64,000 nucleotides of DNA, taken from Gemmatimonas sp. Lineage in GTDB: Bacteria > Gemmatimonadota > Gemmatimonadetes > Gemmatimonadales > Gemmatimonadaceae. Each line of letters opens with the position of its first letter. The stretch's first letter is position 1. Below, piece after piece: positions 24,001 to 30,000 of the stretch. The position numbers are program-made. The stretch is taken from positions 1 through 64,000 of the forward strand of contig JANNVQ010000010.1 in assembly GCA_031414535.1 (NCBI GenBank), read 5' to 3'.

Positions 24001-27000
24001 TCTCCCCGACTACCACGAGTTCTGGCATTCGGCGAGCACCAAGGGCTACTCCGGCACCGCCATCTTCTCGCGCACAAAGCCGCTGAGCGTCACCAACGGC
24101 TTCTCGAAGGCCGTGATGAAGAAGTTCAAGCTGGTGGACAGCGAAGGCCGCGACAGCGCCGACGAGGGGCGCGTGATCTCGGCGGAGTTTGCGAAGTTCT
24201 ACGTGGTGAGCGTATACACGCCCAACGCCAAGGATGACTTAAGCCGTCTGCCGCTGCGCGAGAAGAGCTGGGATCCAGCCTTTCTCGCACATTGCAAAGC
24301 GCTCGAGAAGAAGAAGCCGGTCATCTTCTGCGGCGATTTGAACACGGCTCACACGGAACTCGACCTCGCGAATCCCAAGACCAACGTCGGCAACAAGGGA
24401 TTCACGACGGAAGAGCGCGCGGGATTCCAGGCATTTCTCGACGCCGGCTTCGTGGACAGCTTCCGCCTCTTTACGGAAGGCAATGGTCACTACTCCTGGT
24501 GGAGCCAGCGTAGCAACTGCCGCGCGCGGAACATCGGCTGGAGAATCGACTACCTGCTCGTCTCAAAGGCGCTGGCCAAGAAGGTGAAGGCCGCTGAAAT
24601 CCACGCCGACGTCATGGGCAGCGATCACTGCCCGGTCAGCATCACGCTTTAGCGAAGGGCCGTAACCAACGGGTTGCCGGTTGACGACGCGCACGGACAA
24701 CTTGTGCCGATGCAACAGATCGTAATTTCGTGGAGCGGCGGCAAAGATGCCGCGTGGGTCCTGCACACGCTCCGCCAGCGTGAGGATATGGAAGTCGTCG
24801 CTCTCCTTAGCATGGTAGTTGAAGGCGATGAGCGCGTTTCGATGCAGGGCATCACGCTGCCGGTGCTACGCGCCCAAGCCGAGGCGGTGGGGCTGCCAGT
24901 CCTCGAGGCGCGGATGCCCCATCGTGCGAGCAATGAGGTCTATGAACAATCGTTTGTGGCGGGCCTCGCGGAGGTGCGACGCCGATGGCCAGACTGCGCC
25001 AGCATCGCATTCGGCGACCTGTTTCTTGAGGAGATTCGCGCGTACCGCGAGGCGCTGTGCGCGCGACACGGATTCACGCCCATGTTTCCACTCTTCGGCT
25101 CAGACACGGCGCAGCTGGCACGGGCGATGATTGCCGGTGGGCTGGAGGCGCACCTGTGCTGCGTTGATACCCAGCAGCTACACGCGCGCTTTGCCGGACG
25201 GGCGCTCAGTCACGCGTTCCTCGACGAGTTGCCGGCCGCGGTAGATCCCTGCGGTGAACAAGGGGAGTTCCACACCTGTGTGGTTGGCGGGCCGATGTTT
25301 GCGCGGGCGCTGCGGGTGCGGAGTGGGGCGCACGTGTTGCGCGAGGAGCGATTCCTGTATGTGGACTACGAGCTCTACTAGTGAAAATCAGCCGCACGAG
25401 TGCATCGCGTTCCGCAAGCGCTTGACAAAGACTTAGACGCCAACGAAGTTCTCTCCGTTCGCTCGTGAGAGCAGACAAGACATAAGCGCTGGTCACTTGG
25501 CCCCAAAGCCAAGTGCGAACAGGGAACCCGGTGTGATTCCGGGGCGGCCCCGCCGCTGTGAGGGAGGACGACGGAGCATCCGGCCACTGCGCTGCAAAGC
25601 GTGGGAAGGCGGCTCCCGAGGACGATTCCCGAGCCAGAAGACCTGCCAACGCTACGGAGTCCGAGCGCACCCTCGAGGGAGGGATCGCCGGGGCGAGTCG
25701 TGGGCGTCTTTGGGCGTCCATTGGCCACGTGGCTCCTTGCGTTCATTCGCGGGGAGCCTTCGTTGTCTCCGGCGCCATCGGTTCACACTGATGCGGGCCG
25801 GAGGTCTTTGCCTCGGGGGTGCGTGCTGTTCAGTCCCCCACCGGAGCAATGCGCATGGCTACGCTCGTTCAACCCGTCTCGTCCCTGTCGTCGCGCGACG
25901 TCGACCTCTTCCTCACGCCGCTCATCGAGGTCGTCAAGCGCGACGGGCGACGCGCAACCTGGGACCCCGCGCGCATCACACGCGCGATTGCGCTGGCCTT
26001 CTATGCGGAGCGGCACGCGGATGCCGACAATGCGAAGGCGGACGATGCCACTGCGCGCTACGGGCTCGGTGTTGCCGACTATGCCGAAGTGCTGGCCATC
26101 ACGGATCTCGTCGTCAACACCATCGCCCGTAAGTTCGACGACGCGGCGCCAACCGTGGAGCAGATCCAGGATACCGTCGAAACGATGATTGCCGCACGTG
26201 GGCACTGGACCATCGCCAAGCACTATGTGTTGTATCGCGCGACGCGCGCGCGCGAACGCTTGGCCAGTCACGGAGAAAATGGGTTGCAGGACTACATCTT
26301 TCTCTCGCGCTACTCGCGCTGGCGGTCCGACCTCGGGCGCCGCGAGTCGCCGGCGGAAGCGTTCACGCGCGTGATGGATATGCATCGCGCACGCTTCGCG
26401 GACCGCTTGGACGCACCAGTGCGCGGTGTGGGAGACACACCGTTACGAACCCTGCTCGACGAAACCGAGGCGGCCCTCCAGCAGCGGCGCATCCTGCCGT
26501 CGATGCGCTCGCTGCAGTTCGGCGGCAGCGCGATCGAAGCGAACAACGCGCGCATGTTCAATTGCGCCTTCACACATATGGACCGCCTCGCGGCGTTCAA
26601 GGAGGCGTTCTTTCTCCTGCTCTCTGGGACTGGCGTGGGCTTCAGCGTGCAGAAGCAACACGTCGCGAAGCTTCCAGTCTTCCCGCTGCGCGCACCCGAG
26701 GCGGAACTGCCAGTGGTGCACCACACCGTGCCCGACTCGCTCGAAGGCTGGGCGGACGCGCTCGATGTCTTGCTACGCAGCTATCTGGACGGCGCCAAGC
26801 TGGAGTTCAACTACAGCGAAATTCGACCGCGCGGCGCAGCACTCAAGACGTCTGGTGGACGCGCGCCTGGACATCTTCCGCTCAAGAAAGCCTTGGTCGC
26901 GGTGGAGCGGATTCTCGAGCAAGTGCCTGGGCGCGCGCTGCGTCCCATCGAAGTCTACGACATCCTGATGCACATCGCGGTCGCAGTGCTGAGCGGAGGC

Positions 27001-30000
27001 ATTCGGCGCTCCGCTACGATCTGCCTGTTCAGCGTTGATGACGACGAGATGGCGGCAGCGAAGACAGGCAACTGGTTTGAGACGCACCCACAGCGTGGCA
27101 AGAGCAACAACTCGGCGATCTTGGTCCGCGGCACCGCGCGCGAAGAGGACTTCGCTCGCCTCTTTGAATATCAAAAGGAGTTTGGCGAGCCGGGCTTCTA
27201 CTTCGTGGATGATGCCGACTACGGCGCGAATCCCTGCGTGGAGATTGGCTTGGCGCCGTTCCTCACGGTGGACGCGGACTCACGCGCCGCGCTGCGGCGG
27301 CACGGGGGCCCCGACGTGCCCGAAGGCACGCGACTGAGTGGGTGGCAGATGTGTAATCTCACGACCATTAACGCCGCCGCGTGTCGCACGCCCGAGGACT
27401 TCTACGCCGCTTGCCGCGCCGCTGCACTGCTCGGCACCCTGCAGGCGTCGTATACCAACATCTCGTATCTCGGTCCGGTGACTCGCGTCATCAACGACCG
27501 TGAGGCGCTGCTTGGCGTGAGCATCTGCGGCGTGCTGGAGCGTCCCGGCATCTTCCTCGACCCGCAGACGCTCGAGCGTGGTGCGGCCACGTGCCTCGAA
27601 ACGAATGCCGCTGTTGCAGCGCATATCGGGGTGGCGGCTGCGGCGCGCGTGACCTGCGTGAAGCCCGAGGGCACGGCGAGTCTCGTGCTCGGTGCGGCGT
27701 CGGGGATTCATCCCCATCATGCCCGTCACTATTTCCGCCGCGTGCAGGCGGCTCGCACTGATGCCGTGTACCAGTGGTTTAAGGCAGCCAATCCACATCT
27801 CACGGAGTCCTCGGTGTGGGATTCGGACACCACCGACGTCATCATCTTCCCCGTCGAGGCAGAACCAGACGCCGTCCTGCGCGAGGATGTCGGAGCCGTA
27901 CAGTTCCTCGATTTCGTGAAGCTGGTGCAGCAGCACTGGGTCGAAGCTGGTCGTCGTCACGAGCGATTCAATCCGGGGCTGCACCACAACGTCTCCAACA
28001 CCGTCACGGTGCGCGACGAAGAATGGGACGCAGTGCAGGAGTTCATCTGGAAGAACCGCCATCACTTCGCAGGCATCTCGCTGCTTCGCGAAACGGGCGA
28101 CAAGGTGTACGCGCAGGCCCCGCGCGAAGCGGTAACCACGGTAGCCGACGCTCTCCGCTGGAACGCGCTGCACTATGTGCCGGTGGACTGGGCGGCAATG
28201 CGCGAGGCGCAGGACGTCACCGCACTCGCGGATGTGATTGCCTGCGCGGGGGGCGCGTGCGAGCTCCAGATCTAGATGACGCGGCGCAGCGTCCGAAAAG
28301 TCCGTGCGTCGGACGCTGCGCGCTGGATTCTGTCGGCCACTCGTGCACTGGCTGTCTTCGCCTGATCGAGGAAATCGCGAATTGGCGGGAGCTCAGCGAA
28401 GAAGAACAGTGGCGCGTCGTGCGGGCGCTGGCGACGCGCCGGCGCTAGTCCCCGAGGTGCAGCGTCCAGCGAACCGGAATGTCCGGATCAATTGAGCTCC
28501 CCACGGAGCAATACTTCGTCACGGCAAGATCAATCGCGCGCTCGGCGTGCACCCGCTCGATGCCGGCGCCCTTCATGTGGTACTGGATGTCCACCGAGAC
28601 GATACGTGATGGCACACCATTCGCCCGCTCGGCCGACACGTCCATCCGCAACGACTCCAGCGGCGTACGGCGCTTCGCGAGGATCTCCACGATGTCCACG
28701 CCCGTGCAGCTCGCGAGCGCGATGCCAACACTGTCCACTGGGCTGGGCCCCGTTTCGGCGTTGCCGTCCATGCGGATTGTCGGCCCGCCCGACGCGCGTC
28801 CGCCGTCGAAGCGTTCGTCCCCAGCCCACGTCACCACCGTCTTGGACGGTGGCTTGCCCTGCGTCGCTTCTGCCATAAAAACTCCTGACTAGTTGCCCAG
28901 CCCTAAGGAGAGCCGGTTGAGCGCGATGCGCCCGTTCGTGATGACCAGCAGCGGGTCGCGCAGCGATCCCGGCTCGCTCAGCGGGTCCCGCTCGAGGATG
29001 ATTAAGTCGGCCTCGTATCCTTCAGCAATCCGGCCAGTCGCGTTTCCTATCCCGAGCAGTTCTGCGGCGCCGCTTGTGGCCGTCGCCAGCGCGTCCCGCG
29101 GCGAGAGACCGAGCGCCGAGAAGCGCATGACTTCGTGGGCGATGCGCGTCGTGCTCTCGCGGGCGTAGTCGGTGTCCGCGCCAGCCGCGATGCGCACGCC
29201 CAAGGCCTGCGCGCGACGAATCACGTCCTCGATGCGCGGCTGCATGTGCTGGCCACGCAACTCGAGAACCGGATCGTTGTAGTCGCCGCCCGGCGTGGTG
29301 AGATCAACAATGGTCGAGAGTGTGGGCACCAGCCACACGTTGCGTTCCTTCATCAAACGGAGCGTCGAGTCAGAGAGATAGGTGCCGTGTTCGATGCTCT
29401 TCACGCCAGCGCGCACCGCGGCGTACGCACCTTCGTCACCGTGCGCGTGGGCCATCACGGGGATGTTGGACTTGGCCGCCTCTTCCACCACCACGCGAAG
29501 CTGTGCTTCGGTGTACGTCTGTTGACGCGGATCAGTATCGGGCAGACCCGCGCGCTCCGTGCCGCGTGTCTTAATCCAGTTCACGCCGTGCGCTGCATTC
29601 ACCTGCACGAGGAGTCGCAACTGCTCAGGCGTGCGCACGCCGCCAGCCAGCGGCGCGAGCCGCGCATCGGCGGTAATGGTCTCACCAAGCTCTGGCGAGA
29701 CAAACACACCGGTGGCCATCATGTCGGGCAGGATCATGAAGCCGGATTTCGCGATGTCGCGCAGCGCCACGTCTTGATAGTTGGGCACGCTCGCCGAGCG
29801 TACCGTGGTGACGCCTGACTGTAGTGCGCGCCGCGCATCAGCCACCGTGCGGATGTGCGTGTGCGCATCAATCATCCCCGGAGCCACCCAACGGTTGGCC
29901 GCGTCGAGCACGCGTGCCCCCGCCGGCACCGCGCCGTTCACCCGGATGCTCTCAATCTTCCCGCCGCGAATCACGATCGTCGCGTTGCGCAGGCGCGTGT

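Follow-up and report, generated by a model that had tools for sequence, protein, structure and literature searches.

A cobalamin riboswitch in front of a monomeric class II-type ribonucleotide reductase in Gemmatimonadota: a candidate backup for B12 scarcity

Cobalamin riboswitches are commonly taken to mark genes for B12 supply and for B12-independent isozymes, a rule that is also used in genome annotation. Typical examples are the riboswitch-repressed class I reductase genes nrdAB(S) of Streptomyces and Bacillus halodurans, as cited in the accessible part of PMC12528414, and the nrdAB, nrdDG, and metE genes of the RegPrecise cobalamin regulons (PMC3766115). The isozyme list of the latter names, in the section available, nrdA, B, D, G, E, F, H, I, metE, and metF, and nrdJ and rtpR had no matches in the accessible part of its supplement files. 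On the protein side, the best sequence and fold matches of the enzyme described here are the monomeric class II reductases (NrdJm), i.e., RTPR of L. leichmannii (1L1L; TIGR02505) and NrdJm of Thermus virus P74-26. One NrdJm that has been tested depends on B12; an equimolar amount suffices, and an excess is inhibitory (PMC6459318).

The window analyzed in the current study is a 64,000-nt stretch of Gemmatimonas sp. (GCA_031414535.1, contig JANNVQ010000010.1). Its sole Rfam match, to the cobalamin riboswitch RF00174 (25473..25664, + strand; 124.4 bits versus a gathering score of 31.5), covers the full length of the covariance model (positions 1-189) and includes the L5 sequence CCCCG (about 25548-25552) and the B12 box (25631-25643); judged from its sequence, the aptamer is expected to bind AdoCbl. 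As the earlier note had reported, it stands upstream of a reductase gene, whose ATG follows the aptamer after 190 nt. The arrangement resembles that of nrdAB(S) in that the gene behind the riboswitch encodes a second reductase beside the housekeeping NrdJ, but here the controlled gene is of class II. A literature search found no published description of such a case.

The gene inventory given in the earlier note, i.e., no class I or III reductase, NrdJ as the second class II enzyme, no MetE, one PduO gene, and a riboswitch-controlled btu operon, was borne out. The genome has one other PF02867 gene, a dimeric-type NrdJ that exceeds the PRK08665 and TIGR02504 cut-offs and ends in a Cys4 finger; the NRDD family (PF13597) is absent, and NrdD-type matches span the ATP-cone only. 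A single PF00268 match has the R2-like ligand-binding oxidases (R2lox) as its best families, below their cut-offs. The MetE catalytic domain was not found in the genome, and the second riboswitch is located before btuFCD-btuB. Among 38 carrier genomes of the riboswitch-reductase arrangement, none had a strong class I beta subunit match or NrdD, and 32 had a PF02867 match.

The reductase gene (25855..28275, + strand; Shine-Dalgarno GGAG plus ATG at 25843..25857, a start position that agrees with the orthologs) is an intact ORF of 806 aa with a Pfam ATP-cone at residues 25-132, and weak RNR-II_ins_dom and Ribonuc_red_lgC matches, all as noted before; for the dimer-mimicking insertion, PF21995 scores at its cut-off. 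The top Foldseek match is 1L1L (E 2e-31, TM 0.63/0.70), and the alignment is not confined to residues 287-453, as had been stated, but runs in three stretches as far as the C-terminal Cys pair. The key residues C237, N459, C461, E463, C500, C797, and C802, which we take to comprise the finger-loop Asn-x-Cys-x-Glu (N459/C461/E463), the redox Cys pair, and the C-terminal Cys pair, are invariant in 60 sequences, with C802 nearly so. The region matching the C-terminal third of RTPR is conserved in riboswitch-bearing and riboswitch-free orthologs alike.

The enzyme shares with RTPR and the P74-26 NrdJm a match to the loop-1 insertion domain, the redox Cys pair, the finger-loop NPCVE, the C-terminal CxxxxC, an NTP-type motif, and the lack of a Tyr pair; the class I Tyr pair at strand beta-J is absent, and GISLL aligns here with STSLL of RTPR. 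It differs from RTPR in its N-terminal ATP-cone, in the riboswitch, and in the presence of a second class II enzyme in the genome. Identity in the structural alignment amounts to about 21%, the enzyme is closer to the phage family phrog_367, and its TIGR02505 score of 234.3 bits is below the cut-off of 340.05, so that it is not an equivalog by that model, although it is expected to function in the manner of RTPR, and its clade is remote from all enzymes tested so far. Its motif PSMR resembles PSGR of RTPR, and NrdJ of the same genome has PNSP, a distinction that separates NTP from NDP types in the accessible part of the Burnim 2022 preprint. Taken together, we infer an AdoCbl-dependent, monomeric reductase of the NTP type.

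Class O reductases were once taken for class II. These class O (zero) cyanophage enzymes have a ferritin-like partner (Burnim 2022 preprint, part available) and offer a model for one of the two options raised in the earlier note, i.e., that the reductase no longer needs B12. The monomeric "class II" clade related to phage enzymes, or its riboswitch branch, would then generate the thiyl radical in another way, from a source as yet undescribed for reductases. In genomes without class I or III enzymes it would occupy, as a true B12-independent isozyme, the regulatory position that nrdAB and metE have elsewhere. We consider this quite unlikely, even if marine viruses with monomeric class II enzymes show no depth or latitude pattern and those with dimeric ones follow cobalt (preprint PMC12918982, part available). 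Unlike class O, the locus has no Tyr pair and no adjacent ferritin-like gene, and the monomer-type insertion is present. No ferritin-like partner was found in the loci of carriers and relatives, and none of the Verrucomicrobia, viral, or metagenome relatives has an NrdB-like gene nearby. A metagenome scan with P0125 gave no match. The viral relatives' neighbors that were tested encode RuvC, ThyX, a primase-like protein, a ligase, SegE, or DUF1353, or are unknown. The first downstream genes, considered as candidates for a partner subunit, were varied and mostly on the opposite strand, with no conserved partner on the same strand, and neighbor clustering was dominated by shadow frames. R2lox was rejected as the beta subunit, with R2lox-like matches in 17 of the 38 carriers only.

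Host metabolism points in the same direction, since an adenosyltransferase or a mutase occurs in all 20 hosts tested, both in 18, and none lacked AdoCbl metabolism; the mutase explains the adenosyltransferase, however, so that this comparison cannot discriminate. PduO was not found beside the reductase in the relatives' loci, which therefore provide no operon evidence for B12 use either. With the tested class II features kept, no Tyr pair, and no partner gene, B12 independence is without direct support and is left with the regulatory context, and the other option of the earlier note, a backup for scarcity, fits best.

The leader can be compared with the translational OFF switches of E. coli btuB and env8HyCbl and the transcriptional P. 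megaterium metE switch, in which, according to the available part of PMC10653944, a kissing loop stabilizes P13 and a P13-destroying helix marks the expressing state. A probable promoter (TTGACA, 17-nt spacer, weak -10 GAAGTT; 25422..25450, + strand) was not called by a consensus promoter scan, but many of the 47 aligned leaders have TTGAC at the corresponding position. The P13 hairpin with its loop L13 (25670..25683, +) is nearly invariant in these leaders and is assigned as the kissing-loop partner of L5 after the same source; L5 CCCCG and the P13 loop CGAGGG, which are able to kiss, are kept in all 47, once with a one-base change. Element "a" in the P1-P13 linker (25656..25663, +), a putative antiterminator, is identical in 36 of 47 leaders and complementary to the 5' arm of a terminator-like hairpin, with 6 of 7 positions pairing in at least 41 of 43. 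This hairpin with a weak U tail (25731..25768, +; hairpin 25731-25758, 11 pairs, 8 G-C) was correctly described before; taken alone it is not above chance (1 found versus 0.5 in shuffles), but 37 of 47 homologous leaders have a hairpin and U-rich tail.

A further layer at the ribosome site had escaped the earlier note. Element "d" (25811..25824, +) is a 14-bp complement of the linker, the P13 5' arm, and L13 (about 25665-25678), with an alternative pairing towards the ribosome-binding region; its duplex of -30.7 kcal/mol compares with a shuffle mean of -21.3 and was matched by none of 200 shuffles. An initially considered partner of "d", CCGGGG behind P13, was replaced by this longer helix. 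The anti-P13 helix comprises 12-16 bp among the leaders and shows compensatory changes, and in 45 of 46 leaders no downstream segment pairs better than "d". With "d" blocked, the ribosome site opens at a cost reduced by more than 1 kcal/mol in 39 of 44 leaders, and in 34 of 45 the native "d" keeps the site more closed than its shuffled version does; in this window the effect is weak (0.5 kcal/mol), with native "d" not above shuffled. In contrast to the described switches, two layers are combined in one leader, the antiterminator is located in the P1-P13 linker instead of P13, and the anti-P13 helix spans the terminator.

Comparative RNA structure thus supports reading the leader as an OFF switch, in agreement with the earlier note. 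Without ligand, "a" would block the terminator and "d" would open P13 and leave the ribosome site free, resulting in expression; with AdoCbl bound, the L5-L13 kissing loop would hold P13, the terminator would form, and the freed "d" would hide the ribosome site. P13 is far weaker than the anti-P13 duplex, and switching would hence need kinetic control. The direction of the terminator rests on homology with two nrdA leaders, in which the aligned element "a" pairs with the RBS-hiding strand (such pairing is absent from a third nrdA leader and similar in one of three metE leaders), because in a co-transcriptional test of 23 leaders the antiterminator folds with and without P13, and holding P13 even favors it in three.

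These folds, together with an activating corrinoid riboswitch, cobT of Alkalihalobacillus halodurans, whose cobalamin-type aptamer likewise precedes the gene of a corrinoid-needing product (PMC10653944, part available), could speak for an ON switch, i.e., a B12-dependent reductase made only in the presence of B12. This is very unlikely, given that the downstream element with the highest conservation breaks P13 up and, once unpaired, tends to cover the ribosome site, that nrdA leaders use the same aptamer and linker element, and that the carrier genomes lack a B12-free reductase as a fallback. In cobT, the one known activating switch, P13 overlaps the terminator, whereas here about 48 nt separate the two, without overlap; a P13-breaking helix able to free the ribosome site, as in OFF switches, is present, though with a weak effect on that site in this window.

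The paradox of a B12 switch on a class II enzyme, as posed in the earlier note, is real and even stronger than stated there, because the arrangement occurs in about 46 genomes without any B12-free reductase and its aptamer lineage is shared with nrdA and metE of relatives in this family. Of the 47 Gemmatimonadota orthologs for which upstream DNA is available, 46 have a full aptamer in front and one a partial aptamer, and the riboswitch-bearing orthologs form one clade (SH-aLRT 99-100). Among 19 matches, the same aptamer lineage precedes nrdA in three cases and metE in three, and in the family sample RF00174 lies upstream of all nine class I loci. This single origin and the common lineage might also reflect a regulatory relic, in which a leader taken over from an nrdAB or metE locus exerts control without benefit; one leader (L034) has lost half of the aptamer, another (L029) the terminator, and the sister clade functions without a riboswitch. 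Such a relic is still less probable than an ON switch, as orthologs of about 71-83% protein identity retain the aptamer, P13, antiterminator, and anti-P13 element, with compensatory changes, and the expression platform is unlike those of the nrdA leaders.

A switch of the type found before B12-free backups elsewhere in this family thus stands before a reductase that looks B12 dependent, which suggests, with a probability of roughly 60%, that the enzyme, although itself dependent on B12, is a B12-sparing backup that is turned on under B12 scarcity. An AdoCbl-dependent, monomeric, NTP-type class II reductase would then support the housekeeping dimeric NrdJ at low B12, either by working at a lower cofactor concentration or by adding cofactor-capturing reductase at the step that becomes limiting first. 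In S. meliloti, NrdJ-dependent growth takes 15-25 times more cobamide than MetH-dependent growth (PMC11580874).

A different kind of backup is unlikely, though less so than the alternatives above: the OFF switch may sense mainly cobalamin, and the reductase may also use cobamides, e.g., pseudocobalamin, that NrdJ uses poorly. Class II reductases do differ, as L. leichmannii uses benzimidazolyl and purinyl cobamides and S. meliloti grows poorly on pseudocobalamin, but so does Euglena (10.1101/772582, part available), whose reductase is described as class II-like. Semiselective riboswitches react more strongly to cobalamin than to pseudocobalamin, yet all 38 riboswitches tested in the accessible part of PMC9600662 responded to both; many carrier record titles point to fresh water. 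Least probable is B12 as a proxy signal for metal- or nutrient-poor conditions, with the benefit, for example, in the NTP instead of the NDP substrate or in doing without the zinc finger of the dimeric NrdJ; the PSMR and PNSP motifs and the Cys4 finger of NrdJ would fit, but nothing indicates that zinc or NDP supply in these bacteria goes along with B12 scarcity. The locus offers a direct way to ask why two class II enzymes are kept by bacteria (cofactor need, affinity, cobamide range), and it bears on marine viruses, about half of whose reductases are of the barely characterized monomeric class II (PMC12918982, part available).

The reductase block is inserted between xth and osmC, which adjoin in two of five genus mates examined, and it is absent from this site in all five, which supports the previous view of an acquired gene. 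The gene is accessory, as also claimed, but not rare: of 300 family genomes, 19 have an ortholog, though none of eight of the genus does. Counted over 301 family genomes, 20 carry this gene, nine carry class I, and most have neither; the two sets do not overlap, which is not significant at such rates. The block also contains a Dph6-like PP-loop ATPase (PF01902; 24674..25381, +) upstream of the promoter, probably a passenger, without a homolog in the other reductase loci compared or at the site in the five genus mates. A gene for a small Cys-rich DUF1289 protein (28257..28448, +; Pfam E 9e-16), which the earlier note had missed, overlaps the reductase stop and is probably co-transcribed. DUF1289 follows the reductase only here and in locus L005, and in two other genomes a DUF1289 gene is located directly behind the same type of riboswitch.

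The cobalamin riboswitch ahead of g00561 on the + strand (RF00174, 25473-25664), described as strong in the earlier note, was recovered at full length with 124.4 bits and is the sole Rfam match within the window. The first gene after it is the 806-aa reductase (25855-28275, + strand), which has an ATP-cone at residues 25-132 plus weak class II domain matches. Its top NCBIfam family is RTPR (TIGR02505; E 2e-69; 234 bits, below the cut-off of 340), and its top PHROG is phrog_367. The alignment to the RTPR structure 1L1L is not confined to residues 287-453, as previously noted, but comprises three stretches extending to the C-terminal Cys pair, and 1L1L is also the top Foldseek match (E 2e-31) of the AlphaFold model (pLDDT 88). 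Among 60 aligned relatives, C237, N459, C461, E463, C500, and C797 are invariant and C802 is nearly invariant; their functional roles we take to be those of RTPR. The strand equivalent to the class I tyrosine-pair strand, the meaning of which is covered in the accessible part of a preprint (Burnim 2022), is GISLL and resembles STSLL of RTPR. Many relatives of 1000-1800 aa, with several matched stretches each, are probably intein-interrupted phage genes.

The scan of GTDB genomes resulted in 73 reductase loci, i.e., 49 of the Gemmatimonadota type, 18 from Verrucomicrobia or Kiritimatiellota, and 6 distant ones. Two of the 49 loci begin within the gene; a full aptamer is located about 330-500 nt upstream in 46 of the 47 with upstream DNA, and an aptamer remnant is present in L034. 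Rfam matches were absent from the 14 Verrucomicrobia loci scanned, and three other genera of the family contributed ten orthologs (about 60% identical) at which no riboswitch was found either. A quickly built tree (68 rows, with group labels assigned by us) places the riboswitch-bearing genes, along with two unlabelled proteins, in a single clade (SH-aLRT 99, inner 100), whose sister is the riboswitch-free group. Riboswitch control therefore arose once and was then kept, and the carrier genomes are kin rather than independent cases. A search of freely accessible papers and preprint main texts found no published description of a class II reductase preceded by a cobalamin riboswitch. The pairing is real and conserved, with known parts in a probably unpublished wiring.

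The 47 aligned leaders comprise P13 (25670-25683 in the window), the linker element "a" (25656-25663), a terminator (25731-25768), and the anti-P13 element "d" (25811-25824) upstream of the ribosome site. In 45/46 scored leaders (one skipped), nothing downstream pairs better with the P13 region than element "d" (12-16 bp), and in 43 leaders this pairing was matched by at most 10 of 200 mononucleotide shuffles. Eleven leaders have an additional C in the linker, and in each of them the G run is one base longer, a compensated change that probably reflects one event. Beside this conservation, the view that riboswitch control is a relic appears very improbable. Opening of the ribosome site is cheaper by >1 kcal/mol when "d" is tied up in 39/44 leaders (median 5.3; three dropped). 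In 34/45 leaders, shuffled versions of "d" close the site less than the native one does. In the window itself, the two effects are weak if present at all. Since B12 binding stabilises P13 via the kissing loop, according to the accessible part of PMC10653944, the anti-P13 state would be the ligand-free one, and the leader reads as an OFF switch in this folding analysis.

The terminator had been likened to those of transcriptional OFF switches. A hairpin with a U-rich tail is present in 37/47 leaders, and six of the seven positions in "a" pair with the terminator 5' arm in 41 or more of 43 leaders. This helix forms whether or not P13 is present, and three of 23 scored leaders tended toward ON, so that folding alone gives no terminator direction; OFF is still favored by the leader as a whole. 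P13 overlaps the terminator in the one known activating switch, whereas the two do not overlap in the reductase leader, and an ON switch, toward which those three leaders lean, is quite unlikely. Natural deletions were observed in L034 (aptamer 3' half, P13, and terminator lost; "d" retained) and L029 (terminator lost; anti-P13 retained). Between the promoter and the aptamer lies a further conserved hairpin (about 25455-25476 in the window, and in homologous leaders), whose loop region is often CACGTG-like; it may act as a 5' stabiliser or as a protein site.

Among 401 genomes of the order, 17 contain a total of 19 matches to a sequence pattern for this lineage of aptamers, followed by this reductase (11), nrdA (3), metE (3), or DUF1289 (2); Pfam confirmed seven of the eight non-RTPR targets. 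The nrdA leaders align nearly base for base with the reductase leader across the aptamer core and P13, and in two of three the aligned "a" element pairs with a strand otherwise hiding the start region, which would fit an "a" that is free only without ligand. The class II-type gene thus occupies the slot of known B12-independent isozymes. In its accessible part, PMC3766115 lists no isozymes beyond class I and III genes, metE, and metF, and no match to nrdJ or rtpR was present in the eight accessible supplement files, which may be truncated. The DUF1289 gene (28257-28448) overlaps the reductase stop in the window, and since it directly follows the same riboswitch type in two other genomes (L271 and L284), it resembles a B12-regulon member; the literature search found no paper on DUF1289 with a riboswitch. 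DUF1289-like genes, judged by eye, occur in 28/80 viral loci. At the riboswitch-nrdAB locus L096 (G192:C25), a metE-like gene lies close behind on the same strand, clustering both B12-independent isozymes. A short cobalamin riboswitch variant (about 137 nt, 35-43 bits) precedes nrdA at L095, L097, and L098 and represents a third aptamer type on nrdA in this family.

The only other catalytic reductase of the genome is NrdJ, which exceeds two curated cut-offs, carries a Cys4 finger at its C terminus along with a PNSP motif, and shares about 21% identity with the 806-aa reductase over the best stretch. The sole ferritin-like match is nearest to R2-like oxidases, and neither NRDD nor the MetE catalytic domain was found in this 98.4% complete genome; PduO is present, and a second cobalamin riboswitch precedes btuFCD-btuB. 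The earlier inventory, without class I or III reductase and MetE but with NrdJ, PduO, and a riboswitch-controlled btu operon, was hence reproduced. With the reductase as the only ATP-cone match, no NrdR was found, and control of the housekeeping nrdJ may be of another kind. PF02867 matches occur in 32/38 carrier genomes; the complete ones, not classified individually, score similarly to the local NrdJ. Neither NrdD nor a strong class I beta match was found in the 38 carriers, 17 of which have weak beta matches (22-70 bits); class I beta is present in 8/12 Verrucomicrobia hosts. Within the family sample, 9/301 genomes encode a class I reductase, with RF00174 upstream of nrdA in all nine. Two genera include both class I and the monomeric-type gene, and no genome of the family sample combines them, an absence of overlap that is not significant at such rates. 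A monomeric-type gene without riboswitch was observed directly 5' of a dimeric NrdJ on the same strand (G154:C110:31463-35778).

All eight genomes of g11, a genus of Gemmatimonadaceae, have the riboswitch-free ortholog and lack PF02867 and class I beta matches (NrdD, 0/5), so that no second reductase was found there, and PduO and mutase were found in the hosts. The clade can therefore serve as a housekeeping enzyme. A conserved pair of boxes upstream of the g11 orthologs (L101-L107) resembles the NrdR consensus, and these are candidate NrdR sites.

A B12-independent reductase would be striking, a B12-dependent one ordinary. Neither the protein nor its surroundings give any sign of a radical source other than B12. 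No conserved partner was found among the neighbors of the reductase, nor an NrdB-like or PduO gene near its Verrucomicrobia, viral, or metagenome relatives; the RTPR-aligned C-terminal third is conserved in riboswitch-bearing and riboswitch-free orthologs alike. B12 independence, one of two options in the earlier note, is accordingly quite unlikely, and the other, a backup for scarcity, is favored by the OFF leader. Adenosyltransferase or mutase was detected in 20/20 hosts tested. According to the accessible parts of the respective papers, the Thermus virus NrdJm requires B12, with equimolar amounts sufficing and excess inhibiting (PMC6459318), and growth of S. meliloti that depends on NrdJ takes 15-25 times more cobamide than growth that depends on MetH (PMC11580874). 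Taken together with the lack of signs of another radical source, these data favor a B12-dependent, B12-sparing backup (probability of about 0.6). RTPR levels reportedly went up in L. leichmannii under B12 shortage (1960s). That the reductase instead accepts a wider range of cobamides is doubtful, and B12 acting as a proxy signal is highly improbable.

The genes xth and osmC, between which the inserted block lies, are adjacent in two of five genus mates and separated by other genes in a third; other genes fill the moaB-osmC interval in the remaining two. The block is absent from this site in all five, and reductase orthologs occur in 0/8 genus mates and 19/300 family genomes, in line with the proposed acquisition of an accessory gene. 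GC content and GC3 are like those of the flanking genes, as would be the case with a donor from the same phylum. Different genes are inserted in different genus mates at the xth-osmC site (G342) and in the moaB-osmC interval (G319 and G293), which resembles an insertion hot spot.
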